Below the pieces are notes generated by a model. That model had not been told where the DNA came from. It ran no database searches and worked only from the letters and a program-made list of their open reading frames with translations. Positions 5,229 through 42,869 of a stretch of 64,000 nucleotides of DNA are shown piece by piece (position 1 is the first letter of the stretch; every line of letters starts with the position of its first letter). Source of the stretch: Escherichia coli. Lineage in GTDB: Bacteria; Pseudomonadota; Gammaproteobacteria; Enterobacterales; Enterobacteriaceae. Both the position numbers and the translations under genes were made by a program. The stretch lies in the NCBI RefSeq assembly GCF_003334305.1, contig NZ_QOWS01000017.1; one strand, given 5' to 3'.

Positions 5229-5363
<135 letters not shown>

Positions 5364-23360: not shown

Positions 23361-23522
23361 CCCACTTCTTCAAACGTCCGTATTTGTCCGTAACCATACT
23401 GTTTTATAAAAGATTTTTTGTTCTTGTTGTCCGTATTAGTCCATAACCTTCCAGTAGAATCCAGTACTAAATGTGTATAGGATTATGTATATGTTCCTGT
23501 TCGACTTTGGAATTCTATACAC

Positions 23523-24692: not shown

Positions 24693-24693
24693 A

Positions 24694-26397
24694 ATGTATA
24701 TTGATAATGTGTATTTAAAAGGATTTAGGAACTATTCTGATAGTTTTGTAAAATTTAATTATTCAACTCTTATAATTGGTGGTAATGATGTTGGTAAGAC
24801 CAACTTATTGTATTCATTAAGGATTTTGTTGGATAAAAGCTTTTCGGATTTAGATTTAGAACCTAAAAATAGCGATTTTCATATTGATGCGAAAGGAAAT
24901 CAGTGTGAAGAGTTAGAAATAATAATTAATTTTCGTGAAGTAAAAGAGGATGCTGTTCTCTCTAAGTTAGCGGGGTATGTTAGTGATGATGCACAAACAT
25001 ACATCAAATATAAAGCATACAGAGCTACTCTTGATTACAAGTTATATATAGGCCACAAAGAATCTGAAATGGATGAGATTAGTGGCAGATTTTATCTTAA
25101 ATATTTAAATTTACGCTATGTGAATTCACAGCGAGACCTTGCTAAATATATATCTACAGAGAAAAAACATTTACTTCGGCTTGCTCAGGAAATGAGAAAC
25201 GAGGAGCAAGTGCGGAAGGATGAAAATACTTTGAATGAATTAACTAATTTATTAAATGATGTCAATGATAAGGTAAAAGAAATAAGCTACGTCTCGACCG
25301 CTACGGAAGAATTGAATGATGAGTTAAAGAAATTATCATATAACAATGAAAAGATTTCTGTAATGCTCGATTCTGGAGCAATTGGTGTTGATCAGTTTAT
25401 TGAAAAATTAGAGTTAAGTTCAAATACAAATGGAAAAAAGGTAATGCTTGGAGGGGACGGATTTAATAACCAAGTATTACTTGCATTATGGAAAGCCAAG
25501 AGTGTACGCGAGCACGATACTGAAAATGAAGTGGTTATATATTGTGTTGAAGAACCTGAATCACATCTTTATCCGCACCAACAGAGAAAATTATCTGAGT
25601 ATTTAATTAGTAAATTGCCGGGGCAGTCTCTAGTAACTACGCATTCTCCGCAAATTGCCATTAATTACTCACCAGATTCAATAATTAAAATTTGCTCTTA
25701 TAACGGTGAGTCTTACGCAGCAAGTGAAGGGTGTTCAGATTGCATAAGTAATGCCTGGAGTGGAATGGGATACAGGATGAGTATACTTCCTGCAGAGGCA
25801 TTCTTCGCTAATGTCGTATTCTTGGTCGAAGGGCCTTCTGAAATGTTATTTTATCAGGCCCTTGCAAAAGAGTGCCAAATTGATCTGGATTTCTTTAATA
25901 TAAGTATATTATCAGTTGATGGCGTTCAATTTGAAGTTTATAGAAAAATTCTTGATGCACTTGAGATTAAATGGGTTGCTCGTACAGATAATGATTCGTC
26001 TAAAGTTCCAAGGAAAAAAGAGTGGCAATATTCAGGTTTAAATCGAGCTTTGGCTCTATGTGGAATGGAGCCACTAAAGAATGAATTAACGGAAATATCT
26101 CAAGCTCAAAGAATAGAGAAACACAAAATTTATAAAGATAAGCTTAAACATCATAATATATTTGTTTCAATTAATGATCTCGAGGGTGATATTGGCGTTG
26201 AGTTAAGTACACAGCTGAAAGAATATGTAGGTGTTGATAATGAGGAAATTGCTGCTGATTATTTAAGAGGAAAGAAAGCAATAAGGATGCAAGAGTTCTT
26301 AGGTGAATACTCTTATGCACTGAAAAATATTTCAGACGGTGAATTAATTCAACCCCTTTTAACTGCTGTAAAATTGGCTACGGAAGAGTTGAGATGA
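24694..26397 (+). CDS. gajA: Gabija GajA-like protein: OLD-family ABC-ATPase plus TOPRIM nuclease
   Basis: 567 aa; N-terminal P-loop GGNDVGKTNLLYSL; ABC-like …VIYCVEEPESHLYPHQQRKL…; C-terminal TOPRIM-like …VVFLVEGPSEMLFYQ… and …ARTDNDSSK…. Confidence 0.75.
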   Translation: MYIDNVYLKGFRNYSDSFVKFNYSTLIIGGNDVGKTNLLYSLRILLDKSFSDLDLEPKNSDFHIDAKGNQCEELEIIINFREVKEDAVLSKLAGYVSDDAQTYIKYKAYRATLDYKLYIGHKESEMDEISGRFYLKYLNLRYVNSQRDLAKYISTEKKHLLRLAQEMRNEEQVRKDENTLNELTNLLNDVNDKVKEISYVSTATEELNDELKKLSYNNEKISVMLDSGAIGVDQFIEKLELSSNTNGKKVMLGGDGFNNQVLLALWKAKSVREHDTENEVVIYCVEEPESHLYPHQQRKLSEYLISKLPGQSLVTTHSPQIAINYSPDSIIKICSYNGESYAASEGCSDCISNAWSGMGYRMSILPAEAFFANVVFLVEGPSEMLFYQALAKECQIDLDFFNISILSVDGVQFEVYRKILDALEIKWVARTDNDSSKVPRKKEWQYSGLNRALALCGMEPLKNELTEISQAQRIEKHKIYKDKLKHHNIFVSINDLEGDIGVELSTQLKEYVGVDNEEIAADYLRGKKAIRMQEFLGEYSYALKNISDGELIQPLLTAVKLATEELR

Positions 26398-28016
26398 TAG
26401 ATTTTACCCATGAGCAAAAAGCAGCAATAGATTACCCATCTAGTATGGTATTGACGGCTTGTCCTGGAAGTGGGAAAACAGCAGTAATCGTAGAGAAGAT
26501 TGTCCGTGACTTGGTGGAATGCAAGGAATATCAGGGTGTTATTGCCATATCGTATACTAACAAAGCAAGCGATGAACTGAAAAAGAGATGTTTAAAGGCT
26601 ACTCCAAATTCAAAATCAAGCTTTTTTGGGACAATAGATAAATTTTATTTGACTGAAGTTATTTTACCATTCATTAAGCAATTATGGGGAAGAGTTGATG
26701 ACTTACATGTAGTTAAGCTTAATGAGTTAGCTTCTTCTGAAAAAGATAGGCTTTCTGCTTTTTTTAATGTCGAATTCATTTGTGAAAAAATTAATGAGTA
26801 TGATTTTAAGGATATAAAGGAACTATACGCCAATGGTATTCTAATACTGGAGTTTATACCATTGCTTGCATTTTATATATTGCGTAACTCGTTAGCATGT
26901 CGCCGATATATCGCTAAAAAATACACATCTATATATATTGATGAGTATCAAGATGCTGGATGTGTTCAGCATCTTCTTTTTCTTTATCTTTTCGAACTTG
27001 GAGTAAAAGCGGTTGCAGTTGGTGATGCTGACCAATCCATATATTCATATGCGGGTAAAAGTTCGAAATACTTAATGTCTTTACTGGATGAAAAAAGTGG
27101 CTTTGCCCCTTTTAAAATAACTATAAATCATCGTTCTCATTCATCTATAGTTAATTATGCTTCTCGATTGTTGAATGAAAACTGTGACTTGTTAATAACA
27201 GATGAAATTCGTGTCTACAGAAAAACTGTTAATGGTACTCAATGTGAAATAGCTAAGTGGATTGATGCTAATATTAACAATATTAAACGAAAGTTCAATA
27301 TTTCAAAAGAAAAAGAGATAGCGATACTTACTGCAACGAATAGTTCTGTCGCTTTAGTATCCGGCCTTATAAACTCCAAAGCAAGAGCATATCTTGATGA
27401 TGAGCTGTCTGTACTCGGTGGAGATGTGTCTCTCTTATTAAAGAACCTTTTGAATTATCGATTTAATAAAACGATTACAGCACAGGCTATCATTGAAAGT
27501 TTAAATTACAAGGTGCTAGAGAGGAATGCAATAAGAAAGATGAGGGGGGTTATTAGAGATGTGAGAGATTCTAATGACAACCAACTTATTCCTGATTTAC
27601 GTAAGGCAGTAAAATTATTAATCAACGCTGATATTTCTGCTAACCATATTGATGCCATTAACTCAATCTTACACAATAAAATGATGCTAAATAATTATTT
27701 ACCAGTTAGTGATGATGAGTTACAAATAATGACTTTACATAAAGCAAAAGGACTAGAGTTCGACTTTGTTTTTCATTTGGATCTTTATGATTGGATATTA
27801 CCGCGAAGGGAATATATAAAACATTGTTTTGATGAGGTTTTTTCACATTATGAGCAATGTCTGAATCTTCATTATGTTGGAGTTACTAGGGCCAAAAAAG
27901 CCGTGGTATTAATAAATTCTACTGAGCGTTTAAATTATCAGAGTGAATTAAAAAAAGCGAAACCATCTCAGTTCTTGTCACTAAAAGGACTTGAAAGTCT
28001 GTATAAAAAAATTTAA
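26394..28016 (+). CDS. gajB: Gabija GajB-like protein: UvrD/Rep-like SF1 helicase
   Basis: 540 aa; helicase motifs I CPGSGKT, Ia ISYTNKAS, II IDEYQDAG, V/VI …TLHKAKGLEFDFVFHL…; start overlaps the gajA stop. Confidence 0.75.
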   Translation: MIDFTHEQKAAIDYPSSMVLTACPGSGKTAVIVEKIVRDLVECKEYQGVIAISYTNKASDELKKRCLKATPNSKSSFFGTIDKFYLTEVILPFIKQLWGRVDDLHVVKLNELASSEKDRLSAFFNVEFICEKINEYDFKDIKELYANGILILEFIPLLAFYILRNSLACRRYIAKKYTSIYIDEYQDAGCVQHLLFLYLFELGVKAVAVGDADQSIYSYAGKSSKYLMSLLDEKSGFAPFKITINHRSHSSIVNYASRLLNENCDLLITDEIRVYRKTVNGTQCEIAKWIDANINNIKRKFNISKEKEIAILTATNSSVALVSGLINSKARAYLDDELSVLGGDVSLLLKNLLNYRFNKTITAQAIIESLNYKVLERNAIRKMRGVIRDVRDSNDNQLIPDLRKAVKLLINADISANHIDAINSILHNKMMLNNYLPVSDDELQIMTLHKAKGLEFDFVFHLDLYDWILPRREYIKHCFDEVFSHYEQCLNLHYVGVTRAKKAVVLINSTERLNYQSELKKAKPSQFLSLKGLESLYKKI

Positions 28017-28036
28017 TTACGTATCTTGGCGCGCAG

Positions 28037-28055
28037 TGCTCTCCCCGCCTCGCCC
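28037..28055 (-). other. P2/P4-type cos site (19-nt cohesive-end sequence)
   Basis: Reverse complement ggcgaggcggggagagcac differs at one position from the P2/P4 cos sequence as I recall it (GGCGAGGCGGGGAAAGCAC). Confidence 0.6.
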
Positions 28056-28219
28056 GCCCGCTTTGCGGGGCGGTTTTAATGCAGTTGCACTGACACGCTC
28101 AGACCGCGCCGGGAATGGCGCGGTCTGCAGAAAATGAGTCAGGAAAACGCATGCAAAGCCATGCACCTTATCGATGCATGGCTTTTTTCAGTAAAAACAG
28201 GCGGATTTTTCGGGGAGTT

Positions 28220-28792
28220 TTACACAGACTGACGTGATGCCAGTTCTGCACTTTTACGCGAAAAAATCATGTTCTGCGCAGGGGTGAATTTTTCACGGCT
28301 GTCATCCACCGAAGCCGCGTCAGGCCTGAATCCGATGGTCGTTAAAATGTCGCTATCCTGTGCGGAATAATTAATTTTTTCCCCCTTCGCAAGCCAGGAC
28401 AGAAGGGCTTCACGCAGGGCATCTGTGGCACGCTGTATGGCACAGTTTCGGGCAATGGCCGTCAGCTCACTGTAGCCCATCAGCTCCGGTGCCAGTGCGG
28501 CCGCCAGTGCTGTGCCGTGCTGCTGCATAAAATCATTCAGCCGCTCGCGGATGCTGATGTGCTGAACGGCTTCATGCGAACGAACATAACGACCGGCGGC
28601 CTGATTCACCTGCCATTTTCTGACTTCGATAATATTGCGTAATTCGTCCAGGCGACTGACGTTTCTGCCTTCCCCGGACAGAAGCCGCAGATATTCCTGT
28701 TCGGCTGCCGCCAGTTCATTTTTGCGCTGAAGCCATGCCGCTTTGTTATTCTGGCAGACCTCAAAAGCCTGCTGTAATGACATTGTGGTCAC
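28220..28792 (-). CDS. psu: P4 Psu (polarity suppression / capsid decoration protein)
   Basis: 190-aa ORF; …LQQAF..CQNNKAAWLQRKNELAAAEQEYLRLL… matches P4 Psu as I recall it. Confidence 0.85.
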   Translation of the reverse strand: MTTMSLQQAFEVCQNNKAAWLQRKNELAAAEQEYLRLLSGEGRNVSRLDELRNIIEVRKWQVNQAAGRYVRSHEAVQHISIRERLNDFMQQHGTALAAALAPELMGYSELTAIARNCAIQRATDALREALLSWLAKGEKINYSAQDSDILTTIGFRPDAASVDDSREKFTPAQNMIFSRKSAELASRQSV

Positions 28793-28806
28793 ACCCCGTC
28801 TCCTGA

Positions 28807-29052
28807 TTAATGGTTGAATGGTGAGCTGTAACAGCCTTTAACTTTTCGGACAACAGCCGGTGCTGTGCTTGCCGGTGCTGGTTTTTCCTCCGTGACCGGA
28901 GAACGAATCACGGCACAAATTGACTCATGCGTTTTAAATGTCGCCGAACAGTAAATATTCTGGCACTGCAGATAACTTTCTTTGACATTGTCACTCACAT
29001 ACCGGCTGGTGCGGGTATGCGCTGAATGACGACAGAAAGGGCAGCGCATCAT
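28807..29052 (-). CDS. Ogr/Delta-family zinc-finger late-gene activator
   Basis: 81-aa ORF with C-x2-C…C-x4-C pattern (MMRCPFCRHSAHTRTSRY…CQNIYCSATF) like P2 Ogr / P4 Delta. Confidence 0.85.
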   Translation of the reverse strand: MMRCPFCRHSAHTRTSRYVSDNVKESYLQCQNIYCSATFKTHESICAVIRSPVTEEKPAPASTAPAVVRKVKGCYSSPFNH

Positions 29053-29783
29053 GACAGCAGTCCTCTGGCCTTAAGCACTGCTCCCTGCTGGTCTATTTTG
29101 TCCTGCCACACCTTGCGCTGTGCCGGTGTGCCTGCCACCTCATAATCCATGTGCGGGAGTGTTGCCGCTGACAGTCCGGTCAGCCGGAGAACCGGCTCGC
29201 CGGTGAGGCTGATTTGCATCTGTTTTATTTTCTGTTCCAGCGATGATTTCACCTGCTGCATGACAGCTTTATCGGGTGCGACGTAGCCCTGATGGCCGGT
29301 GGTGTTGGCGAGCGGATTTTCCTGTACCAGGATACTCAGATGCATTGCCCGGACAAGCGCCTCACAGGTTTCATTCAGGGCGTGTTCCAGCTCATGCTCT
29401 GCATACAGACTCAGAAGGTGATGATGTGCCTTCCGGTAGGCGGTGGCCGTGCTGTCACACGCCCCTTTCAGGCGTTCACGTTCAAAATTCAGCACCACGG
29501 CCAGATTGTCATATTCCTGTACCAGCTCCCGGCGTGCCACGCGCTCAATGTGGCGCTGTTTCAGCTCATCGCTCAGGACACCACCGGCTGCACGAAAGGC
29601 CGTGCGCCAGTCGTCAGCGTCGTTTCCGTCGGCCTGCGCCAGCGCATTTTTTTCCTGCTCTGCCCGTTCAATGGCCGTAACGGTCTCATCCATCAGGCGG
29701 GCGTTCTCAAGATGGGCGGCTCTGGACTTTTCCAGTTGTGCCAGTGCGGGTTGCAGATATTCAGGGATAGTGTGGTCAGACAT
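29049..29783 (-). CDS. sid: P4 Sid (capsid size-determination external scaffold)
   Basis: ORF 29049-29849; start placed at MSDHTIPEYL... (244 aa); coiled-coil-rich. Confidence 0.8.
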   Translation of the reverse strand: MSDHTIPEYLQPALAQLEKSRAAHLENARLMDETVTAIERAEQEKNALAQADGNDADDWRTAFRAAGGVLSDELKQRHIERVARRELVQEYDNLAVVLNFERERLKGACDSTATAYRKAHHHLLSLYAEHELEHALNETCEALVRAMHLSILVQENPLANTTGHQGYVAPDKAVMQQVKSSLEQKIKQMQISLTGEPVLRLTGLSAATLPHMDYEVAGTPAQRKVWQDKIDQQGAVLKARGLLS

Positions 29784-29817
29784 TTTCCGGCTCCTCGTCA
29801 CTTCAGGTTGAGAAAAT

Positions 29818-29873
29818 TGTGACGTACACCGGACAACAACACGACGCATTGCAGATGTGCCAGCCCTGACACA
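29818..29873. promoter_or_regulatory. two TGT-N12-ACA Ogr/Delta-type activator sites in the divergent late-promoter region upstream of sid
   Basis: TGTgacgtacaccggACA (29818-29835) and TGTgccagccctgacACA (29856-29873). Confidence 0.55.
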
Positions 29874-29951
29874 GGAGACTCATCCTCAGACCGGCAAGCC
29901 AGGAAAAGGTCGCAGGAAAAACCGGCTTACTGTTTGTTTTTTTATATTTTA

Positions 29952-30057
29952 CTGTTCACCTCTGTTCACCATAAGAAAAAAGATAAGTAATACAGTAAGT
30001 TAAAGGGTGAACAATCGCAGTAATGACTGTTCACCGTCTGTTCACCACTGTTCACCC
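29952..30057. repeat. P4 ori-like iteron cluster (TGTTCACC repeats, both orientations)
   Basis: At least six copies of tgttcacc or its complement within about 110 bp. Confidence 0.7.
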
Positions 30058-30335
30058 GTTGATGGGCTTTTTGTGCTGTTTATTACTGTTTGTTTTTATT
30101 AATTCGCCGGGAATGAATAAGAAAAAACGATTTGTATTTCACTATAAAAATTACGAATTGCTTTAAGTGGCTTTAAATGACTTTAAGTGGAGATGAACAA
30201 AAAACACACAAGCATTGTAAGGCTGCCGGAACAAATCCCCCCTGTTGCGTCTGCTGAAAATATTCACAAAATAAAACGCTACCCGAAGCCGGACGGACTT
30301 ATCCGGTGCTGTATGGACATTAACGAGGTAGCCCG

Positions 30336-30602
30336 ATGCAAGCTGTTTTTTCTTCCCCGTCTCCTGCCCCTGTGACGCCACTGATGCCGCTGCCGGACAT
30401 CACACAGGAGCGTTTTTTACGTCTGCCGGAAGTGATGCACCTGTGCGGCCTGTCACGCTCGACCATCTATGAACTTATCCGTAAGGGGGAATTTCCGCCG
30501 CAGGTGAGTCTTGGCGGTAAAAATGTGGCCTGGCTGCACTCTGAAGTCACCGCATGGATGGCCGGGCGCATTGCCGGACGCAAACGGGGGTACGACGCAT
30601 GA
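30336..30602 (+). CDS. AlpA/Vis-family small DNA-binding regulator
   Basis: 88-aa ORF; …[34 protein letters not shown]… is the AlpA-type HTH. Confidence 0.65.
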
Positions 30603-30991
30603 TGATGCCCGCTCTGCAAAAAGTCCCTTTTTCTGGCTTGCCTTTTTCCGGCATTTGCGGATATAGTTTTTCCGTTGCCGCAAAATCGGCAGCCGGGCGT
30701 GAGAACCCGTGTAACTCGAAGGCGACATATGACGCGCCATGCGTCTTTTTTTGTGTCGCAATCAACGCCACAGAGCGCCAGATTATGGTGTGGCGTGTGG
30801 TTTGCCGTGCAGGTATGATCCTGTTCGCAATCGCATGTTATGCCACTGAGTCAATGGTAGCTCAGGCGGGGCAGCCTCCGGGCTGGCCGGTATTCTTCGA
30901 GGCCGGTATTCTCACCCCCGTCTGGGCTATCGCCATCGAGCGTGAGAACTCCGGCGATAGCAGTTATTTGCTACTCGAAGGAGGCTGCCTT

Positions 30992-31189
30992 ATGGCTACA
31001 ACCCTTACCCCCTCACACCCTGAATTTGTCTTTGTGTTTGCGGCTGTCCGTCGCGCAGACCGTCATCCCCGTATCTGCATGCTTCGCACCGTCGCCGGTG
31101 ATGAACGCAGCGCCCGCCGTTCCCTTGTCCGTGACTATGTGCTCTCCCTTGCTGCCCGTCTGCCGGTGGTGGAGGTGTCCCGTGCGTAA
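30992..31189 (+). CDS. small hypothetical protein of the satellite early operon
   Basis: 65 codons from an ATG with a strong upstream aaggagg RBS, inside the longer ORF 30554-31189. Confidence 0.35.
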
Positions 31190-31469
31190 TAAAAAAGCCC
31201 CTCAGACCGTCTCAGCACGTCATGACGCCCGTGAACACCTCAGCATTGAGGCTTACCATAAGCTCAACCGCGCCAGCTCCGTATCCCAGTTTGTTGGGGG
31301 TGATTTGATTCACCGTGAACTCTCCGGCCTGCATCAGCTCTACATTCCGCATATTTTCAGCTACCTGAATGAAGATATTGATTTTGTGCTGAATGAGCTG
31401 AAAGCCAAAGGCCTGTGCCGCGATTTTCTCGCCCAGCAGAAAGACCGGGGAGACAGGACGCATGTTTGA
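31182..31469 (+). CDS. small early-operon protein, 95 aa from a GTG start (possible P4 epsilon-like anti-repressor)
   Basis: Tail of ORF 30942-31469; GTG preceded by ggagg; the size matches my recollection of P4 epsilon, but the assignment is not verified. Confidence 0.3.
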
Positions 31470-31917
31470 TTTTCCCCAGCCCGGTGAGATTTACCGTTCT
31501 GCCGGTTTTCCCGATGTGGCCGTGGTCGGCATTCTGGAAGACGGTATTCCGTGGGAAATGCCGTACCGCTGCCCGGACATTGTCTGGAACCCGTACCGCC
31601 GTAAATTCAGTATCCTTGTGCGTATCCTCGCTGACGGACGCACCACAGACATCCCGCTGGGGCGTTTTCTGCGGGAATTTACCTGTGACCGTCCTGACCT
31701 GTTTAAACGCAGCCCCGTAAACCGGCATGCGGTACTGAAAGAAATGGCCGGAGACCCGGAATTACAGAAATGGCGGGAAAAATATCTGGATATTTACCCG
31801 CAGGCCCCTGTTCCGGTCAGCCGGGCGGCACCGGTGGCGCGGGAATGGCGGGAAATTCCCCGCACGGAGCCTGACCCGGAAATCACCCCGGATAACAGTT
31901 ACCGCAATTATCTGTAA
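31462..31917 (+). CDS. P4 orf151-like hypothetical protein
   Basis: 151-aa ORF in the position and of the size of P4 orf151, upstream of alpha. Confidence 0.5.
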   Translation: MFDFPQPGEIYRSAGFPDVAVVGILEDGIPWEMPYRCPDIVWNPYRRKFSILVRILADGRTTDIPLGRFLREFTCDRPDLFKRSPVNRHAVLKEMAGDPELQKWREKYLDIYPQAPVPVSRAAPVAREWREIPRTEPDPEITPDNSYRNYL

Positions 31918-32052
31918 TTAAAAAACGACACCCGAAAAATTAAATGTGCGTATTCGCGCAGGGATACGCACGTCTTCAGGAGACGCAGATATGCCTTATC
32001 AGTTAATGCAACCGGCACGGAATGCAGTCATCTGTCACAGGGAGGAAAGCAA

Positions 32053-32373
32053 ATGAAAACCCCCTTACCGCCCGTCTTACGCGCAGCCCTTTACCGTCGC
32101 GCTGTCGCCTGTGCCTGGCTGACCGTGTGCGAACGTCAGCACCGCTACCCGCATCTCACCCTTGAATCACTGGAGGCGGCCATCGCCGCTGAGCTGGAAG
32201 GCTTTTATCTGCGCCAGCACGGTGAGGAAAAAGGGCGTCAGATAGCCTGTGCCCTGCTGGAAGATTTAATGGAATCCGGCCCCCTGAAGGCCGCGCCGTC
32301 GCTGTCCTTTCTCGGGCTGGTTGTGATGGATGAACTCTGTGCCCGTCACATAAAAGCGCCGGTACTGCACTGA
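32053..32373 (+). CDS. P4 orf106-like hypothetical protein
   Basis: 106-aa ORF immediately upstream of alpha. Confidence 0.5.
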
Positions 32374-32387
32374 AGGAGAACAACACC

Positions 32388-34721
32388 ATGAAAATGAACG
32401 TAACCGCCACCGTCAGCCATGCACTCGGCCACTGGCCGCGTATTCTCCCGGCGCTGGGGATTCAGGTGCTGAAAAACCGTCATCAGCCCTGTCCGGTCTG
32501 TGGCGGGAGTGACCGCTTCCGTTTTGATGACAGGGAGGGGCGCGGCACCTGGTACTGCAATCAGTGTGGTGCCGGTGACGGCCTGAAACTGGTTGAAAAG
32601 GTGTTTGGTGTTTCCCCGTCCGACGCGGCCGCAAAGGTGGCTGCCGTGACCGGCAGCCTGCCACCGGCTGACCCGGCAGTGACGGCCGCCGCCGTTGCTG
32701 AAACAGACGCTGCCCGGAAGAACGCCGCCACACTGGCACAAACCCTGATGGCGAAAACCCGTACCGGAACCGGTAACGCCTACCTGACCCGCAAGGGCTT
32801 TCCCGGCCGGGAATGCCGGATGCTGACCGGCACACACAGAGCCGGTGGCGTGAGCTGGCGCGCCGGTGACCTTGTGGTGCCACTGTATGACGACAGCGGC
32901 GAACTGGTTAACCTTCAGTTAATCAGTGCTGACGGCCGTAAGCGCACCCTGAAAGGCGGACAGGTCAGGGGCACCTGTCACACCCTTGAAGGACAGAATC
33001 AGGCCGGAAAACGTCTGTGGATAGCGGAGGGATACGCGACCGCACTTACCGTACATCACCTGACCGGTGAAACGGTGATGGTGGCGCTTTCTTCCGTGAA
33101 CCTCCTTTCTCTGGCCAGCCTTGCCCGGCAGAAGCATCCGGCCTGTCAGATTGTCCTTGCCGCAGACCGTGACCTCAGCGGTGACGGCCAGAAAAAAGCC
33201 GCCGCAGCCGCAGATGCGTGTGAGGGCGTTGTTGCCCTGCCGCCGGTCTTCGGTGACTGGAATGATGCCTTCACGCAGTACGGCGGGGAGGCCACCCGTA
33301 AGGCCATTTACGATGCCATCCGGCCACCGGCTGAAAGCCCGTTCGACACCATGAGCGAAGCAGAGTTTTCCGCCATGAGTACCAGCGAAAAGGCCATGCG
33401 TATCTATGAGCATTACGGTGAGGCGCTCGCGGTCGATGCCAACGGCCAGCTTCTGTCTCGCTATGAAAATGGTGTCTGGAAGGTGCTGCCGCCACAGGAC
33501 TTTGCCCGGGATGTGGCCGGGCTGTTTCAGCGTCTGCGCGCGCCGTTCTCCTCCGGGAAGGTGGCCTCCGTGGTGGACACCCTGAAGCTGATTATTCCGC
33601 AGCAGGAAGCCCCCTCCCGCCGCCTGATTGGCTTTCGTAACGGTGTGCTCGACACACAGAACGGCACGTTCCACCCGCACAGTCCGTCACACTGGATGCG
33701 CACCCTGTGCGATGTGGATTTCACCCCGCCGGTGGACGGTGAAACGCTGGAGACCCACGCCCCCGCGTTCTGGCGCTGGCTTGACCGTGCCGCCGGTGGC
33801 CGTGCGGAAAAACGCGACGTGATTCTGGCCGCACTGTTTATGGTGCTGGCAAACCGCTATGACTGGCAGCTCTTTCTGGAGGTGACCGGTCCCGGCGGCA
33901 GCGGCAAAAGTATCATGGCCGAAATAGCCACCCTGCTGGCCGGGGAGGATAACGCCACGTCGGCCACCATTGAGACGCTGGAATCCCCGCGTGAACGTGC
34001 CGCGTTAACTGGCTTCTCACTGATACGCCTGCCGGACCAGGAAAAATGGAGCGGCGACGGTGCCGGACTCAAGGCCATCACCGGCGGCGATGCGGTGTCC
34101 GTTGACCCGAAATACCGGGATGCATACTCCACGCATATCCCGGCGGTGATTCTGGCCGTGAACAATAACCCGATGCGCTTCACCGACCGCAGCGGCGGCG
34201 TGTCACGCCGGCGGGTGATTATTCACTTCCCGGAACAGATAGCCCCGCAGGAGCGCGACCCGCAGCTTAAGGACAAAATCACCCGCGAGCTGGCGGTCAT
34301 CGTGCGTCACCTGATGCAGAAGTTCAGCGACCCGATGCTCGCCCGGTCACTGCTTCAGTCCCAGCAGAACTCAGACGAGGCGCTGAACATCAAACGGGAT
34401 GCCGACCCGACGTTTGATTTTATCGGCTATCTGGAAACCCTGCCGCAGACCAGCGGCATGTATATGGGGAACGCCAGTATCATCCCGCGTAATTACCGTA
34501 AATACCTCTATCACGCCTATCTGGCCTACATGGAGGCAAACGGCTACCGGAATGTACTCAGTCTGAAAATGTTCGGGCTGGGGCTGCCGGTGATGCTGAA
34601 GGAATACGGACTGAATTACGAGAAGCGCCATACCAAACAGGGGATACAGACCAACCTGACGCTGAAAGAGGAAAGCTACGGCGACTGGCTGCCAAAATGT
34701 GACGACCCTGCAACAACCTGA
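32388..34721 (+). CDS. P4 alpha primase-helicase (zinc-finger primase, P-loop helicase, C-terminal iteron-binding domain)
   Basis: 777-aa ORF; N-terminal CPVCGG…CNQCG zinc motif; Walker A GPGGSGKS in the central region. Confidence 0.9.
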   Translation: MKMNVTATVSHALGHWPRILPALGIQVLKNRHQPCPVCGGSDRFRFDDREGRGTWYCNQCGAGDGLKLVEKVFGVSPSDAAAKVAAVTGSLPPADPAVTAAAVAETDAARKNAATLAQTLMAKTRTGTGNAYLTRKGFPGRECRMLTGTHRAGGVSWRAGDLVVPLYDDSGELVNLQLISADGRKRTLKGGQVRGTCHTLEGQNQAGKRLWIAEGYATALTVHHLTGETVMVALSSVNLLSLASLARQKHPACQIVLAADRDLSGDGQKKAAAAADACEGVVALPPVFGDWNDAFTQYGGEATRKAIYDAIRPPAESPFDTMSEAEFSAMSTSEKAMRIYEHYGEALAVDANGQLLSRYENGVWKVLPPQDFARDVAGLFQRLRAPFSSGKVASVVDTLKLIIPQQEAPSRRLIGFRNGVLDTQNGTFHPHSPSHWMRTLCDVDFTPPVDGETLETHAPAFWRWLDRAAGGRAEKRDVILAALFMVLANRYDWQLFLEVTGPGGSGKSIMAEIATLLAGEDNATSATIETLESPRERAALTGFSLIRLPDQEKWSGDGAGLKAITGGDAVSVDPKYRDAYSTHIPAVILAVNNNPMRFTDRSGGVSRRRVIIHFPEQIAPQERDPQLKDKITRELAVIVRHLMQKFSDPMLARSLLQSQQNSDEALNIKRDADPTFDFIGYLETLPQTSGMYMGNASIIPRNYRKYLYHAYLAYMEANGYRNVLSLKMFGLGLPVMLKEYGLNYEKRHTKQGIQTNLTLKEESYGDWLPKCDDPATT

Positions 34722-34765
34722 CCCACCTGACCGGCATCTGCCGGTCTTTTTTTATCCCTGAATTC

Positions 34766-35070
34766 CCCGAAGGTGAACAATCCACTGTTCACCCTTCACC
34801 GTATATTCACCCGTTATCACACTGAAATTAAAAGAGAAAAACGAAAGGTGAACAGTGTGAACAATCAAATCAAAAAAAACTTTTTTCTTCCTGAGTGATT
34901 TCAGCACGGGAAATTAATCCCCTGCACAAGTCACACCGGCAGAATGCCGGAGGTGAAGAATCGAATGTTCACCCTTCACCCATTATTCACCACCTATCCA
35001 ACTGAAATAAAAGGAGAAAACAGAAAGGTGAACAGTGTGAACAGTTCTTTCGAAAAAAAATTTTTTTCTT
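34766..35070. repeat. P4 crr-like region: two tandem repeats of about 120-125 bp, each carrying TGTTCACC-type iterons
   Basis: Near-identical units beginning ccgaaggtgaacaatccactgttcaccc… and ccggaggtgaagaatcgaatgttcaccc…. Confidence 0.7.
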
Positions 35071-35185
35071 ATTTTTAATTGTGCGAAAAACAAGCGACAC
35101 ACGCAGTGTGTATAGATATGTGTATAGTTATATTTTTTGAATATTATAATGTATTACAAATCAATGTGTTAGCTTGTAATATTCA

Positions 35186-35205
35186 CTCCTATTATCGGCA
35201 CCATC
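35186..35205. repeat. att core, copy 2 (attR of the P4-like satellite and left boundary of element 2)
   Basis: Exact 20-bp copy of the thrW 3' end. Confidence 0.8.
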
Positions 35206-35808
35206 AAGAAAATCAATAACTTAGCTTAACTTCTCTAAGAAATTGTATCTTCTGTTATCACTTACAAACGCCTATACGTTGTTATGGGCTTTGGTAGTGT
35301 AACACGTATGGGCGAGTAGTTCCCAGGCTCAACCTCGTAACAAGTTCCTTTGAAGCTGGAAGACGTGCCACCGTCTCTAAACCTTCTACCAAAACTCTTA
35401 GCAAGATGTTCCACACCTGGCGCGGTGTCCAATGATGCTACACGTCGTGAGACGTTGCAGAGGATAAACAGGCTAAATGATGGGAAGAGTTTTAAGTGCA
35501 ATAGTGGATTAAAGCCCACCTCTTCAAAACCTAACTTGATCGGGAAAGAATCAAGCTCTAGCACGGTTTCGTCCACCGGAGTACAACGGGTGCCTGATAA
35601 GAGAAGAACTGCTAAGACTTCATAGCTTTTGTGAAAAAGCCCTTTTTAGTGGATACGCCTACGGCGCTTATTTTTTGGTATAACCATCAAAGGCGCTTTA
35701 TGGCTCCTATTGTCTTGAAAATGTATCTTTACTTGTATTGTGTTTTATGCGTAGTCTCCCTGTGTAGTATGTAACTTGTTAATTTTCATATGAATACAGA
35801 GGCACACG

Positions 35809-35967
35809 ATGAAAAACATTGCAGCTATCAAACGGAATAACCGCAAGATTCACGCTCGTAAGTTCCTGTCTACGCCAGAAGGAAAAGCCTGGCTAGAGCG
35901 TAAACAGAGAGAAAACGAAGAAAGAAAACTCCTTAGTGAGTTGAAATGGCTTAGAGAGGATTTCTGA
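35809..35967 (+). CDS. small basic hypothetical protein (52 aa), below the ORF-track size cutoff
   Basis: ATG preceded by an agagg RBS; translation MKNIAAIKRNNRKIHARKFL…. Confidence 0.3.
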   Translation: MKNIAAIKRNNRKIHARKFLSTPEGKAWLERKQRENEERKLLSELKWLREDF

Positions 35968-36310
35968 AAATCTCCAGAACGCAACAGGACGCATTCTAAC
36001 GCTGTTTTCATTACTCGGTATAGGGATTATAGGTGATGTGTGTTTAATGCGTCTGTGAGCTTGTTTTGTGCCTTATTTTGCATTTTCATAATGCAGGAGA
36101 GAACACGGAAAGCCTTAAAATTAATTATTGGGGTATTTAAGGCTATTTTTAGGTTATTTAAGGGTATTAAACTTGATTTAATTGATTGAAATATAAACAG
36201 ATAATTATGTATCTTATTGATTTATAAGGTTATTTTTAAATAAAGGTAAATAAAAAATAAATAGCCATAAATAGCTATAAATACATCTAAATACCTATAT
36301 CCCTTCCCTT

Positions 36311-36694
36311 ATGGCTAGATTGCGAGAAGTGCTTAACGCGATTTTCAGCGCCCCCCGATCTGGAAAATCCAGAATCCCCAAATATCAGCAAGGAATTTTC
36401 TTGCGTAATCAACATCGTTTTTACCTATTAAATCATTACACAGAAAGCCTTTCTGTAATGTCTCTCACTAAACTTTCACTAAACACGAGAATGATCGGTT
36501 TTATGTCGGATCAGATGCTAGAAATAGCACCACGTCTCACAAGGGCTGTAAGCGATGAAACCAGTGTTTATGCGGGTGCAGGTCAAAATATAGGCCAAAA
36601 TACATTTAACATAATAAACGTAATATGCACTAAGGAACACATAGAACGCCTTGAGTTGATGTATCAGGGGAAAAGTGGTGGATTTTTTACGTAG
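36311..36694 (+). CDS. hypothetical protein
   Basis: 127-aa ORF in an AT-rich region; no recognisable motif. Confidence 0.25.
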   Translation: MARLREVLNAIFSAPRSGKSRIPKYQQGIFLRNQHRFYLLNHYTESLSVMSLTKLSLNTRMIGFMSDQMLEIAPRLTRAVSDETSVYAGAGQNIGQNTFNIINVICTKEHIERLELMYQGKSGGFFT

Positions 36695-36720
36695 GAGCAC
36701 GAGAGGGCTTCTATTGACTT

Positions 36721-36999
36721 TTGTATGCTATGAAATATAATAGAAGGTTTTTTTATGTTGATAGTGATTGCACATTAAAGATTGAAAGCAAATTTAAACA
36801 TAAATTTTCAACACGTGAAAGAGAACTTGTTCGACAAATGATAAAACGTTTATTGAGCAACAATTTTGCAGTGATGCGCTATATGCCGAATTACACAAGG
36901 CTTTGCGAAAGTGATGTAAAAGTGAAGAAAGTAAGAATTGCAACTTTAAGCTACTTTTCATTGAATTTTTTAGTATGGAATTACACAGGAATAAGTTAG
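36721..36999 (+). CDS. hypothetical protein
   Basis: 92-aa ORF; no recognisable motif. Confidence 0.25.
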   Translation: MYAMKYNRRFFYVDSDCTLKIESKFKHKFSTRERELVRQMIKRLLSNNFAVMRYMPNYTRLCESDVKVKKVRIATLSYFSLNFLVWNYTGIS

Positions 37000-37085
37000 G
37001 GATATTCTATGATTTACACAGGGAATATAGGGGGATTATGGCACACACATAGAAAGACATTACACAAAGTGCTATGTGACAAATG

Positions 37086-37303
37086 GATGTAACGAGAGGT
37101 TACATTCAGCTATCTGAAATGCTCTCTGTAAGAAAGTTGGTAGTAACGATATGTTACATAGACTAATTATTGAATGTAACGATATTACACATCGGTAGTA
37201 ACGATACGTTACATCGACTAATTATTGAATGTAACGATATTACACATCGGTAGTAACGATACGTTACATCGACAGATGATTGGATGTAACGAAAGGTTAC
37301 ACA
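37086..37303. repeat. iteron/operator array: seven GTAACG-N4-5-GTTAC-type palindromic sites, including two perfect 57-bp tandem units
   Basis: Units ggtagtaacgata(c/t)gttacat…gaatgtaacgatattacacatc repeated head-to-tail; an AT-rich stretch follows at about 37310-37390. Confidence 0.7.
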
Positions 37304-38398
37304 ATAAGACTATATTATTTATAATACTAAATAAAACTATATTAGATTATTAATTAGATCATAATAATATTCTTTATATCTATATATATGATCTTTTGCC
37401 TTCCGGCGTTAGCTTCACTCCCTGGCAAGCAGCCTTACTCCGCTACCTTTCGGGCTACGTTGGCTGGCCCGTTCCGCTCACACCGAAAGCAAAGCGTTAC
37501 TTTCTTCGTGTAACTATCGTGGCGGTAACGCCCACGAAGAAATACTATTGCGCTGTGCGCAGAAGAGTAATCACCTAACCAATCATAGATTGCTTATGTG
37601 TTAACTCTCTCTACCTCTTAATTCCACTTCCTACATTTAATAACTCTGTTATTCTCTGTAGTTGTGTAATTACTCGAAGAGAGAGCGGCTAAAGCTCAAT
37701 TACACTCTGCTTTCCTCGTGTAAGTTCACTAAGCCTCAATACAATTTCACTTCCTACATTCTGTAGTCGTGTAATTGTTTTCGGTGGAAAAGCCAGAGGC
37801 GACACCGAAAGAGAATTCTGATCTTATTAATCTTATCTATCTTAGTTAATCTTCTTACTTTATCTACTTTATTATTAATAATAGCTTTATAAGCTCTGTG
37901 TAGCTCTCTGACGCAAGAAACAGCATTCAGGAAGGGAATCACCTTAGAAAAGGTGTTCTTTGCGTCATAATGTGTTTTATGAAGGATTCAGAGGTGTTTC
38001 ATAACAGGAATGTATAGAGGATATTTTAATTAATTAAAAATAAGGGGTCTAAATGCTTCTCTAACAACATTAAGCAGGGTAGGGAATGGAAACGCATTGC
38101 CTACATATAATAAGCTCACTACAGGGCTTTACAGAGCGTTTTATAAAGTGACTCTCTGTTTTATATTTACCATTACCTTTTCATATACCTAACAAATACA
38201 AAATAAGCCCCTTCAATAAGCCTCTGGCGAGCGAAACAGCCATTAGATAAGGGAATGTATTGCTTTTATCAAAATCTCGTCAGAATGCGATTGAGAGTGT
38301 TTTAGCGGATAATGAAGAATAGCACTACATAGAAGAGCACGAATTGTTAAGCAAAATCATAACATACTGAAAAAGATCAGTTTTTTTGTGAAAAGGTA

Positions 38399-38427
38399 TT
38401 GACAAACGTCTCTTTCTGTGCAATAAT
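38399..38427 (+). promoter_or_regulatory. sigma70-like promoter (TTGACA, 17-bp spacer, TGcAATAAT extended -10)
   Basis: Read directly from sequence; about 130 nt upstream of the 38555 ORF. Confidence 0.5.
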
Positions 38428-38554: not shown

Positions 38555-38731
38555 ATGAAATATTTCACTCCACAGGATGTAGTAGAAGCCTGGAAACGTG
38601 GTGAGATCAACCGCTTTAAAGTAAGGATGTATAGAAACACCGCTCGCCGTTGTGGTTATCCAGAGCGTGAAAAATGTTTTGACGATGCACTGAAAATTAT
38701 TGATGAACTGCGTAAAGCTGAGAAAGAATAA
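38555..38731 (+). CDS. small hypothetical protein (58 aa)
   Basis: ATG with a strong aaggagg RBS; first gene after the promoter. Confidence 0.45.
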   Translation: MKYFTPQDVVEAWKRGEINRFKVRMYRNTARRCGYPEREKCFDDALKIIDELRKAEKE

Positions 38732-38753
38732 TAGACAAGAGAAGGAGAAAACT

Positions 38754-38921
38754 ATGAGCGAAACTAAGAAACCAATTCCGCGCACTTACCTTCACGTTGA
38801 CCCTGAAATCTTCAAGGTTTTATTTGCTGAAGCCAAGAAAAGGCAAATTATGGTCAGTGATTTGATGTTAGAAATCATTACTGAAGCAGCAGAGAACATC
38901 AAACAAAAAAAGGGTAAGTGA
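38754..38921 (+). CDS. ribbon-helix-helix (CopG/Arc-like) DNA-binding protein
   Basis: 55 aa; …RTYLHVDPEIFKVLFAEAKKRQIMVSDLMLEII… fits a beta-strand then two helices (RHH). Confidence 0.5.
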   Translation: MSETKKPIPRTYLHVDPEIFKVLFAEAKKRQIMVSDLMLEIITEAAENIKQKKGK

Positions 38922-38974
38922 TCCTCATTCACTTTAGTAGCGCATTAAGCGTGATTTATAAGGAGATGATTCTA

Positions 38975-39718
38975 ATGTCTAAAATTAAATTGATTCGTGA
39001 AAAATACCAGTATGTTGATAAACAAACAGGAGAAATTAAAGACCGAACTTTGAATATACCGCATTACTTTTGTGAGATTGAATTTATCTACTCCTCAAGT
39101 GTTGATGGTGGAAAAGTTAAGTTTAGTGCAGAAATGCAAAAATTATATTGCTATGTTTCAGATTGGGAGAAATCAGGGGGGATATGTTTTGAAACACAAA
39201 CGAAGTTAAGTAAAGTTTGTGGCTGTAGCCGTAAGACAGTTAATGAACTGATTGGTCTTATGATTAAAATCGGTCTTTTAGAAGAGGTCGGAGAACGAAT
39301 TCCAAAACGTCCTTTAAAATTACGTGCGCTACCTCTCACAGATGCACATATTACTCCCCCAGGAGAATCATCACTCTCTGATCTTTCTGAGGCAGAAGAA
39401 GCACAGGAACAACCTAAAGGCCATAAACAGCCTTCTTTTGATGTTCTTGATGATTGGGATGCGCCTTTACCGTGGGAGACGGAAGAAACACCTGTTTCAT
39501 CAAGTGAAAAGGTAGCTAATGATAATGAGGAGGATGTATTAGAGAATTTTGCCTCTCTTATCATCCAGGAGAAACACACAAGAACAGGAGGAGCATCATT
39601 TATTGAGTTTGCAAATTCACTAGCTTATAGATACGGGCTAAAACGACCAAATGGTATTGAGGCATATTTTTCTAAGAATTACCCAAATGTATATGATGAA
39701 TTTGATATTCCCTTTTAA
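38975..39718 (+). CDS. helix-turn-helix protein with acidic C-terminal half (candidate replication initiator or regulator)
   Basis: ORF 38918-39718; start placed at the ATG after an aaggag RBS; winged-helix-like segment …TQTKLSKVCGCSRKTVNELIGLMIKIGLLEE…. Confidence 0.5.
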   Translation: MSKIKLIREKYQYVDKQTGEIKDRTLNIPHYFCEIEFIYSSSVDGGKVKFSAEMQKLYCYVSDWEKSGGICFETQTKLSKVCGCSRKTVNELIGLMIKIGLLEEVGERIPKRPLKLRALPLTDAHITPPGESSLSDLSEAEEAQEQPKGHKQPSFDVLDDWDAPLPWETEETPVSSSEKVANDNEEDVLENFASLIIQEKHTRTGGASFIEFANSLAYRYGLKRPNGIEAYFSKNYPNVYDEFDIPF

Positions 39719-41837: not shown

Positions 41838-42869
41838 ATGATTCTAGGTAATGATTACGTTGATTTAGCTCCGCTTTTCCAGGCACACAGCACTAGAAAC
41901 TTTCTGCTCTCTACCCTCGACTTCACTGATCCGGTGGGCGTTAGTTCTCATAAAGTAGCTGTTTCTCAGCTTGTCGAAAGCAACGAATCTCTGTTCAACA
42001 AAGAAACCTCTCGTTTCTCTTCTGAACACAATGTTACTAAGCGTGAACAAGGTAAAGAATGGCTGATTGAAATCCCGTATTTTCTTCGTGAAGATGTGAT
42101 CCGTCCTTCTGATGTTCAAGGCAAGCGTAAGCCTGGCACTGATTTTCAGGAAACACTCACTGATATCTATGCGGAATATATCGCTAAACACCACGTAGCG
42201 TATCAGCGTACAAAAGAGAGCGTGTTGGCTGCATCTCTGTTTAGCGGTAAAACTTACACGCCTAAAACTGATGATGTTCTTATCGAGTGGGGCAAGCTGT
42301 TTAACGTGGCACCTATGAAAGCCACCTTGAACGCTTCCAGCACTGACACAATGACCGTTTTCAAGCAATTTGACCAGCTTGCTACGGATATGATTGCTAA
42401 GGCACAAAACCAGGCTGCAACCATTGAGCGTGTTGTTGTGTTCTGTAAACCTGCGGCATTCAACGCTATTCGTTACAGTGTTGGTATGGTCAATGCTTTC
42501 CAATATGCAAGCCCTGTAGACGATGCCAACGTGGTGTTTAATGTGCGTTCCCTGCTACCAGGTGTAACTACTTTCACCATTCCAGGAACTAACATTGACC
42601 TGATCAAAGTGACTGATCCGCTACACCTTGCACATATGGCTTCTGATGCGGTTGCTGTGCCTAAATTCGCTAAGGGGGCAGGTGTTTACCAATCTATCTA
42701 TGGGGCAGCTTCCAGCACCTTTGAACTGATCAATGCCGCTCCTGCTGAGGTGTATAGCTATAGCTATGAATCTTCTTCTCGTGGTGATGCTGTTAACGTT
42801 GTTACAGAGAATAGCCAGATGGTGGTAAACCACGGCGTTGGTTTCTCCGTTCAAATCACTGTTAAATAA
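41838..42869 (+). CDS. phage major capsid protein candidate (lambda gpE-like family)
   Basis: 343-aa ORF (lambda E is about 341 aa); several segments, including the C-terminal …GFSVQITVK, resemble my recollection of lambda E; not verified by search. Confidence 0.5.
   Translation: MILGNDYVDLAPLFQAHSTRNFLLSTLDFTDPVGVSSHKVAVSQLVESNESLFNKETSRFSSEHNVTKREQGKEWLIEIPYFLREDVIRPSDVQGKRKPGTDFQETLTDIYAEYIAKHHVAYQRTKESVLAASLFSGKTYTPKTDDVLIEWGKLFNVAPMKATLNASSTDTMTVFKQFDQLATDMIAKAQNQAATIERVVVFCKPAAFNAIRYSVGMVNAFQYASPVDDANVVFNVRSLLPGVTTFTIPGTNIDLIKVTDPLHLAHMASDAVAVPKFAKGAGVYQSIYGAASSTFELINAAPAEVYSYSYESSSRGDAVNVVTENSQMVVNHGVGFSVQITVK

Follow-up and report, generated by a model that had tools for sequence, protein, structure and literature searches.

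A conserved, covarying chain of hairpins beside the predicted replication origin of a satellite-like island in Escherichia coli

The stretch analysed here, hereafter the window, comprises 64,000 nucleotides of an Escherichia coli chromosome around thrW (assembly GCF_003334305.1, contig NZ_QOWS01000017.1), in which tRNA-Thr at 23283 is followed by a P4-like satellite (23500–35150) and, in tandem with it at thrW, by a second, independent integrative element of ~12 kb (~35187–47.3 kb). Within the left part of this second element, which is poor in open reading frames (ORFs) and where RefSeq annotates nothing between 35967 and 38555, two similar boxes form part of a chain of six or more stem-loops (~37393–37810). 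The feature is a conserved, covarying hairpin module beside the origin of an apparently undescribed satellite-like island, and this structural statement is in our judgement solid. As to function, we tentatively favour the view that the hairpins could be origin-linked single-strand DNA signals, comparable with ssiA/ssiB or with primosome assembly sites, as their position and the pattern of constraint would suggest.

A sequence-only reading of the window had described a duplicated promoter-like or operator-like box, each copy followed by a stem-loop, which might specify two small RNAs or a duplicated regulatory site. A repeat search showed that the duplicated half-boxes are real, both halves occurring twice as exact matches, 123 nt apart, where that reading had placed them: CACTTCCTACATT lies at 37625–37637 and 37748–37760, with no other exact match on either strand of the 64 kb, and CTGTAGTYGTGTAATT at 37656–37671 and 37761–37776, its sole exact matches in the window. 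The duplication of both a 13-mer and a 16-mer at a spacing of 123 nt is far beyond chance. The copies are direct repeats on the same strand, of 52 nt (box 1) and 34 nt (box 2), and box 1 carries an 18-nt central insert, TTAATAACTCTGTTATTC, itself a small hairpin, which is absent from box 2. Each box is the 5′ arm plus the 3′ arm of one imperfect hairpin, and the two boxes are paralogous; AATTnCAC-TTC-CTACA pairs with TGTAG-TY-GTG-TAATT within each box, and the halves are paired in every minimum-energy fold, with RNA or DNA parameters and on either strand. Both of the 8-bp complementarities from which the stem-loops had been drawn do exist (GTGTAATT at 37664–37671 with AATTACAC at 37698–37705, and TTTCGGTG at 37779–37786 with CACCGAAA at 37803–37810), but a box followed by a stem-loop is not the unit that is conserved. 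Beyond the E. coli lineage neither pairing is kept: the second is found in that lineage alone, and the first, besides, competes with a better fold and is unused in minimum-energy structures. The parts of the chain are as follows.

37390–37547: block A, GC-richer, with several stem-loops in the folds, e.g. CTTTCTTCGTG...CACGAAGAAA at 37500–37543.
37549–37561: hairpin TGCGC-TGT-GCGCA, with a 5-bp stem and a 3-nt loop; of all hairpins in the array, the one conserved most widely.
37572–37600: hairpin Hx, CAC-CTAA-CCAATC / GATTG-C-TTA-T-GTG, from covariation in helices 1 and 2 of alignment A4 (described below).
37605–37685: complete hairpin of box 1, from minimum-energy folds and A4 covariation.
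37687–37735: middle hairpin GGCT...AGCC, around TTACAC (37700–37705) and GTGTAA (37718–37723).
37741–37778: complete hairpin of box 2, ACAATT/AATTGT, CAC/GTG and CTACA-TTC-TGTAG, from folds and alignment A3 (below); the short form, which has no apical mini-hairpin.
37779–37810: hairpin TTTCGGTG/CACCGAAA around the invariant GCCAGAGG (37792–37799).

In box 1 the outer stem is formed by CTCTCTCT (37605–37612) with AGAGAGAG (37678–37685), the inner stems by TAATT/AATTA, CAC/GTG and CTACA (37631–37635) with TGTAG (37657–37661), and the apex by the mini-hairpin AATAAC-TCT-GTTATT (37639–37653). Conservation differs from part to part. Block A is nearly invariant among E. coli copies and retains ~65% identity in the Citrobacter locus L030, and the TGCGC-TGT-GCGCA hairpin occurs in most lineages, including ones with otherwise different modules, and is duplicated in loci L022 and L027. 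The flanks of the middle hairpin, GGCTAAAGCTCA and TTCACTAAGCC, are kept across genera and, used as anchors, brought in 107 metagenome loci. In the last hairpin TTTCGG and GCCAGAGG are likewise kept across genera, and the 3′ arm CACCGAAA is restricted to the E. coli lineage. Compared with shuffled sequence, folding of 37600–37830 as RNA gave z-scores of −4.1 and −5.0 on the two strands, and folding of 37390–37830 with DNA parameters gave −5.1 and −6.6, significant on both strands.

Relatives were gathered by way of capsid-based loci, exact-protein look-ups and a DNA-pattern scan of metagenomes (107 stretches); a capsid-profile search of genome contigs yielded 4 loci only, the protein look-ups and the pattern scan being far more productive. 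The resulting sample held 114 unique sequences, with 47 representatives below 96% identity. Two alignments were scored for pairing, A3 with 33 sequences of box hairpins and A4 with 18 sequences of Hx and box 1 with its outer stem. Paired cells made up 97.2% of A3, compared with 93.6% in column shuffles (0/500) and 26–45% with slid partners, and the covariation score was 0.121 as against 0.067 shuffled (0/500). The corresponding values for A4 were 89.7% paired, 81.5% shuffled (0/500) and 24–38% slid, with a covariation score of 0.221 versus 0.095 shuffled (0/500) and at most 0.078 in the slid controls; both-sided changes affected 10 pairs and 52 cells, and one-sided (G-U) changes 2 of 581 cells. 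The exchanges themselves are compensatory. The outer stem in A3 switches from ACAATT/AATTGT to CCAATA/TATTGG and CCAATT/AATTGG, and in A4 that of box 1 goes from CTCTCTCT/AGAGAGAG to CTCTACCT/AGGTAGAG, CTACA/TGTAG becomes CTACG/CGTAG, and within Hx CATGT/ACATG becomes CATCT/AGATG and a U-A pair becomes C-G in 7 sequences. These data clearly show a conserved base-paired structure, in RNA or in single-stranded DNA, above both the shuffled and the slid controls.

The modules vary in architecture as well as in sequence. Among E. coli copies an apical insert of 18–19 nt is present or absent independently in box 1 and in box 2; over all collections searched, box 2 is short in 61 loci and long in 5. 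The long box form is the rule in other genera, where the apical stem covaries from AATAAC/GTTATT to GATAAC/GTTATC. The loop, i.e. the gap between half-sites, ranges from 3 to 21 nt in either box and the copy is not lost. In sister lineages, unrelated hairpins with outer stems stand at the box 1 and middle positions (GCTGACT.../...AGTCAG, GGCATAACTT/AAGTTAGCC, ACCGT-GCT-ACGGT and ACTGG.../CCAGT), and the inner stem of the middle hairpin is ACCGT-GCT-ACGGT or ACTGG...CCAGT in other lineages. In Escherichia sp. E1V33 (locus L029, 4880–5120) there is a single fused box, in which the left arm of box 1 and the insert are joined to the right flank of box 2; the box copies therefore recombine, and the two-copy state is not obligatory. 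Selection is on base-pairing and not on the sequence of half-sites in duplex DNA, and the preserved pairs are almost all Watson–Crick. Given the compensatory changes, the varying loop length and the swapping in of unrelated hairpins, the module most likely acts as folded single strands and not as duplex operators.

A 581-nt core of the module was present in 438 of 5426 complete E. coli genomes (~8%, about 1 in 12) at 90–97% identity, always on the chromosome and with a median of one locus per positive genome. Among the E. coli records listed, 39 of 40 have no annotation over the core and the remaining one has a hypothetical protein. An ORF-poor gap of ~2 kb is shared by relatives in Citrobacter, Klebsiella, Enterobacter, Cronobacter, Dryocola and Sodalis, and all of these genera but Sodalis also carry the box-type hairpin module, Dryocola in one genome; the anchor motifs of the module were not found in the Sodalis locus L039. 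Conservation in related elements, on which the sequence-only reading had made its proposal depend, thus extends from the E. coli genomes to other Enterobacterales genera and 107 metagenome stretches, and the notion of a duplicated functional module in a truly non-coding stretch is borne out. The module region had no similarity to phages, in near, distant and Klebsiella-version searches, or to plasmids, and a mimic of the cos/pac or oriT site of a known replicon is therefore unsupported. The right end of CP4-6 in K-12 (yagL–intF), tried as a possible instance of the same element, is a different element, so K-12 transcriptome data are not applicable. The boxes also recall REP/BIME sequences in being imperfect palindromes of ~35 bp that are often paired, but REP elements number hundreds of copies per genome, whereas the boxes occur as two copies in the 64-kb window, only inside the element. 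The Rfam matches in the chromosomal flanks, IS009 (53636–53835, 202 bits) and a naRNA4/REP-type match (5232–5309, 76 bits), are unrelated to the boxes.

Two observations were made downstream of the chain. Approximately 420 nt beyond the invariant GCCAGAGG, its inverted copy is found as CCTCTGGC (38221–38228), and TTCACTAAGCCTC (37725–37737) recurs as TTCAATAAGCCTC (38210–38222); the copies CCTCTGGC and TTCAATAAGCCTC are either the remnant of a third module or a long-range pairing partner. Nearer to the chain, a C/T-rich tract of ~90 nt and variable length (37811–37900) precedes a long hairpin at 37910–37966, GACGCAAGAAA...TTCTTTGCGTC with an inner CACCTT/AAGGTG stem and then ATAATGTGTTTTAT, which is terminator-like on the + strand and confined to the E. 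coli lineage.

The surroundings of the chain have the layout of an iteron-type origin, with the following features.

37139–37303: three 55-bp iterons, each with the palindrome GTAACGATAYGTTAC; type 'W', from the repeat search.
37304–37389: AT-rich stretch with GATC sites, presumed to be the DNA-unwinding region of the origin.
38399–38427, + strand: early promoter, strong and σ70-type, TTGACA-17-AATAAT with TG, an 11/12 match.
38918–39718, + strand: Rep-like initiator, winged-helix/λ O-like, from PHROG replication-initiation matches and from Pfam HTH_36 in relatives.

The GC fraction is ~0.25 in the 200-nt interval from 37200, which overlaps the AT-rich stretch, and in relatives each iteron cassette is again followed by an AT-rich stretch. 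The right arm is ~94% identical except for one non-homologous segment, the N-terminal part of Rep, and the cluster to which this part belongs agrees with the type of the proximal iterons in 47 of 55 elements (G 20/24, C 9/11, D 7/8, F 7/7 and W 4/4), most exceptions being elements in which no iteron type was called. As the N-terminal clusters match the proximal iteron type, the iterons and AT-rich stretch are taken as the cognate origin, and 37139–37303 is the predicted cognate binding array of the element's Rep. The hairpin array begins directly after the AT-rich stretch and lies between the origin and rep, with the early promoter on its other side; the module is constant whichever Rep/iteron specificity is present. 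The early promoter, which drives small ORFs, rep and structural-like genes, sets the right-hand limit of the non-coding block, and most of the 47 representatives have a + strand promoter of at least 10/12 in a corresponding place, at +225 to +310 nt from GCCAGAGG in other genera.

The iterons themselves are diverse. At least five unrelated families occur in the E. coli lineage, GTAACGATAYGTTAC, CACAGAAnnCTGTTA, GGTCACTGTGAGCTAGGGG, GGAAATGAGTTCC and TATCAAnnCTGATA (window 37084–37303; loci L002, L006, L007, L012 and L016), and two more types in the Klebsiella locus L036 (4100–4380). Origin cassettes are mosaic, with one to three in tandem, each with its own AT-rich tail, and only the hairpin-proximal cassette matches the Rep type; the extra cassettes could be fossils, handcuffing sites or a means of piracy of other elements' Rep. 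The motif (A/T)TTACACA occurs eight times within the iterons and upstream of them, always on the + strand (36436–37302); the 7-mer TTACACA corresponds to positions 3–9 of the DnaA-box consensus TTWTNCACA.

Signals for transcription were sought at the array itself. A σ70 scan found no promoter-like site at 37326–38139 on the + strand or at 36761–38023 on the − strand, and among the 47 divergent representatives no positionally conserved promoter of at least 10/12 lies upstream of the array on either strand. A scan for intrinsic terminators flagged only 37549–37561 (− strand, with a weak tail) and 37940–37955 (+ strand), and neither a box hairpin nor the stem-loops of the sequence-only reading. 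No Rfam 15 family, C4/CI included, matched 37300–38000 at the gathering threshold or at E≤5. When 37390–37990 was compared with the whole window by blastn-short for antisense targets, there were only exact matches of 10–12 nt and one 14/15 match, at chance level (E>1). A role as a CsrA sponge was discarded on inspection of the sequences, as the − strand has no excess of GGA motifs and those present lie outside loops. With strand-symmetric consensus structures restricted to Watson–Crick pairs, the counts of G-U and A-C cells were 43/45, 3/2, 26/44 and 6/13, i.e. about equal, so that wobble is not favoured and neither strand is preferred. A pattern of substitution with almost no G-U states would be expected if both strands had to fold, or if the pairing partner were DNA.

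It is because of this position at the origin and the lack of transcription signals that we prefer a single-strand DNA model. In such a model, Rep would open the adjoining AT-rich stretch, the helicase would then enter the hairpin region, and both strands, once single-stranded at the origin, would fold into hairpins that replication proteins might read by shape as entry or priming signals. Candidate readers would be the host primosome or primase, or a factor of the helper or of the element. Duplication of the box would supply two such signals, and the copies would swap sequence by recombination, as may be reflected in the apical insert found in either copy and in the one relative with a fused box.

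A precedent is the oriV of RSF1010, which has two highly similar 40-nt hairpin-forming ssi sites that become accessible once the initiator has bound and the helicase has unwound the DNA, and are then read by primase (PMC8567376). The likeness consists of paired similar hairpins beside iterons and an AT-rich stretch, with single strands exposed by an initiator. However, ssiA and ssiB lie on opposite strands and are read by the plasmid primase RepB′, whereas the present boxes are direct repeats on one strand, each able to fold on both strands; they sit in a chain of more than 400 nt and at least six hairpins, the PHROG and Pfam annotation shows no recognisable primase gene in the element, and there is no similarity to plasmid sequence. 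As the direct repeats, the missing primase gene and the lack of similarity place the module outside the RSF1010-type ssiA/ssiB systems, our claim is that it would work like such a system and not that it is a member of one.

Two further comparisons bear on the same model. PriA-type sites, such as the n′ site of ϕX174 and the pas of ColE1/pBR322, are single imperfect hairpins of ~55–100 nt near the origin that are read by shape and not by consensus. Reading by shape would fit the swapping of unrelated hairpins, but the module described here has conserved unpaired linkers and a much larger array, and its priming activity is a candidate function. The intergenic region of the Ff phages (f1/M13) is a gene-free chain of imperfect hairpins of ~0.5 kb with origin functions in single-stranded DNA, and in being a gene-free hairpin-chain block of ~0.5 kb the module resembles it. 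Ff phages, in contrast, replicate and package single-stranded DNA with an HUH nickase, whereas the element has an iteron-binding winged-helix initiator and tailed-phage-like genes.

Several points weigh against the single-strand DNA model. The proposed role in priming or protein loading rests on where the array lies and on how it is constrained. The array is far larger than known ssi signals or primosome assembly sites, and both the orientation of the boxes and the missing primase depart from RSF1010 as set out above. The unpaired linkers TCAATCCAAT, CTCGAAGGTAGAGC and GCCAGAGG are strongly conserved, which suggests sequence-specific contacts that a signal read purely by shape would not need. 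Two clades differ by fixed changes that account for many of the double substitutions, which leaves few independent events. Finally, z-scores with RNA parameters are lower on the − strand in 39 of the 47 representatives (mean −4.2 versus −2.6), and some of the + strand loops are of classical RNA tetraloop types (GUAA, UACG and UAAC); these z-scores and tetraloops favour an RNA. The strand signals conflict, however, since the minimum free energies and z-scores point to the − strand, the loop types to the + strand, and the strand-symmetric counts show no bias.

The foremost alternative, which comes close to the preferred model and which we rate as a real possibility although with well under even confidence, is a structured non-coding RNA several hundred nt long, or a sense/antisense pair, formed by the hairpin chain, that controls replication, induction or interference with the helper phage; the boxes would then be two stem-loops of that RNA. 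A multi-hairpin domain with covariation, and the size and modularity of the array, are what such an RNA would have, its z-scores with RNA parameters are −4 to −8 in the E. coli copies, with the bias to the − strand just given, loops of the GNRA, UNCG and UNAC types occur on the + strand, and the single-stranded linkers are conserved. Satellites do use regulatory RNAs, the P4-like neighbour in the window carrying one of C4/CI type at 30850–30937, and in E. coli copies the terminator-like + strand hairpin at 37910–37966 lies just downstream. Against this stand the absence of a positionally conserved promoter on either strand, of an intrinsic terminator conserved across genera, of an Rfam family even at E≤5 and, in the rest of the window, of any complementary target of more than 12 nt. 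In addition, G-U pairs are nearly absent and there is no strand bias in wobble versus A-C, an uncommon pattern for a single-strand RNA. A sense/antisense pair, as in RNA I/RNA II of ColE1, needs both strands folded, and would thus explain the Watson–Crick-only, strand-symmetric constraint and also the modular turnover, in terms of specificity or incompatibility. ColE1 lacks both a Rep protein and iterons, and its RNA I and RNA II have clear σ70 promoters. The plasmid shares with the module a multi-stem-loop region by the origin in which both strands fold and in which stem-loop variation would set specificity, but no such promoters are conserved at the hairpin array. The CI RNA of P4 with seqA/seqC and the C4 RNA of P1/P7 (RF01695, RF03163) are comparable as non-coding regulators, the former of a satellite, with duplicated short boxes in a non-coding leader; the Rfam C4 models, however, match only the neighbouring P4-like element (30661–30937), and there is no box-complementary sequence elsewhere in the window. 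In its fullest form, which we consider possible but rather doubtful, this proposal would make the chain an undescribed structured RNA of ~0.4–0.6 kb, or a sense/antisense pair, specific to a new family of Enterobacterales satellite-like islands and controlling replication or the response to the helper phage, with the exchangeable stem-loops as specificity determinants.

The boxes might instead be duplex binding sites for a dimeric regulator or partition protein, e.g. the ribbon–helix–helix-like 73-aa ORF at 38700–38921, and act as operators or as a centromere-like site. Each box is indeed an imperfect palindrome, a small ORF of this kind lies downstream (its fold judged from sequence only), and TTACAC(A) is clustered, with 13 of the 32 matches in the window falling within 36436–37774. 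The arms of the E. coli boxes hold the TTACACA motif, in inverted orientation; other genera do not, the arm there being GTGCTATTGG and TTACAC lost. In addition, the half-sites are spaced by anything from 3 to 21 nt in either box with the copy kept, are unequal in length (16 versus 15 nt) with conserved bulges, and can be substituted in place by non-homologous hairpins, and compensatory states differ between the boxes of one element, e.g. CTACA/TGTAG versus CTACT/AGTAG in locus L033. As variable spacing, unequal arms and differing compensatory states within one element exclude a duplex operator for a dimeric protein, we regard the duplex-site reading as improbable, and with it falls the operator-like part of the sequence-only reading, in view of the compensatory arm changes, the range of half-site gaps and the non-homologous replacements.

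That each box is the promoter of a small RNA ending at the next stem-loop is very improbable. In its favour, the module is present in two similar copies with a complementary 8-mer pair after each; however, no −35/−10 match lies in or near the boxes on either strand, U-tracts are missing from the downstream stem-loops, whose conservation stops at the E. coli lineage, and within each box the two halves are paired. The promoter-like reading, with no σ70-like match in or beside the boxes on either strand, is not supported; two small RNAs are conceivable, but there is no sign of a promoter or terminator for them.

We give hardly any weight to the boxes being recombination sites (res, inversion or dimer resolution) acted on by the small recombinase that many relatives encode on the left side of the gap. 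Such a gene, on the − strand, does border the ORF-poor gap in most relatives, and the boxes do recombine, as in the fused box of L029. But elements with this same module encode a serine recombinase (E. coli), a tyrosine recombinase of ~190 aa (Klebsiella, Citrobacter and Enterobacter) or none (the window, L002, L006 and L007), and it is for this reason that recombinase sites are rejected; no conserved long-range inverted repeats bound an invertible segment, no inverted alleles were found among more than 100 loci, and the boxes lie ~1 kb from the recombinase gene, beyond the iterons. Scant credence is likewise given to the idea that the short hairpins with 5-bp stems and 3-nt loops are extruded DNA-hairpin promoters for a helper-phage RNA polymerase, as in phage N4, through which the satellite would sense infection directly. 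N4 early promoters are hairpins extruded from supercoiled DNA and stabilised by single-stranded-DNA-binding protein; the short hairpin has conserved stem bases and a conserved heptamer, GC-rich and centred at −11, and an A-run precedes +1 (PMC4496689). The geometry of TGCGC-TGT-GCGCA, CTACA-TTC-TGTAG and ACCGT-GCT-ACGGT resembles these promoters, and such a function would account for constraint at the DNA level without σ70 promoters. On inspection, however, the GC-rich heptamer and A-run are not seen (the box apex is CTACA-TTC-TGTAG), the ancestral long box form has a different apex, and there is no similarity to any phage in the collection; as the defining heptamer is missing, the resemblance to N4 promoters is one of geometry only.

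The element that carries the module encodes, besides Rep, a Phage_cap_E (λ E-type) capsid-like protein (41838–42869), a tape-measure-like protein of 612 aa, a Dit-like protein and, on the − strand, an integrase of DUF6538 type; no terminase or portal was found in it, and its capsid protein is only ~23% identical to that of any isolated phage. The ~12-kb unit also occurs elsewhere: in NC101 it stands by itself at tRNA-Gly, and further sites include tRNA-Leu. No description of the family was found in the literature, and an island described in PMC6177240, considered as a possible account of it, is a different one. The element appears to represent a phage-satellite family distinct from P4, PICI, cf-PICI and PLE. 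Between its left end and the iterons there is a variable cargo slot that holds Abi, GmrSD, HNH, HTH or PerC-type genes, depending on the copy (window 35187–37050; L002 7081–9075; L008 1–1691; L009 1–1486) and that, like its counterparts in P4 and PICIs, is a hotspot for defence genes. On the left side of the gap, E. coli elements encode a serine recombinase of ~180 aa (L003 10603–11142) and other genera a tyrosine recombinase of ~185–205 aa (L031 3017–3595; L033 3166–3726; L036 1944–2561), the window's own copy having neither; this non-homologous replacement suggests an equivalent role, e.g. in multimer resolution or inversion. Right after the early promoter lie two small conserved ORFs (38555–38921), of 58 and then 73 aa. 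The 73-aa product (38700–38921; RTYLHVDPEIFKVLFAEAKKRQIMVSDLMLEIITEA) is ribbon–helix–helix-like by sequence, with no family match at E below 0.009, and is a candidate regulator of the region.

The neighbouring P4-like satellite encodes an integrase, a cargo pair of ATP-dependent nuclease and UvrD-helicase, psu, delta, sid and an alpha primase–helicase (32388–34721), followed by two 120-bp crr-type repeats (34767–35066). Its RNAs comprise the C4/CI-type RNA at 30850–30937, and a1/b1-type targets and an isrK-like match at 30661–30751.

The module is thus carried by about one in 12 complete E. coli genomes and by Klebsiella, Enterobacter, Citrobacter and Cronobacter, and matches nothing in the Rfam, phage and plasmid collections. 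Its host island looks like a phage satellite of a kind that the four families usually searched for do not cover, with an integrase, a Rep with swappable iterons and a slot for defence-gene cargo. If the hairpins are origin signals, they would define the start of replication in this island family independently of Rep specificity; if they are an RNA, it would be a new large structured RNA in very well-studied bacteria. In either case, the sequence provides precise stems and compensatory variants for mutational tests.

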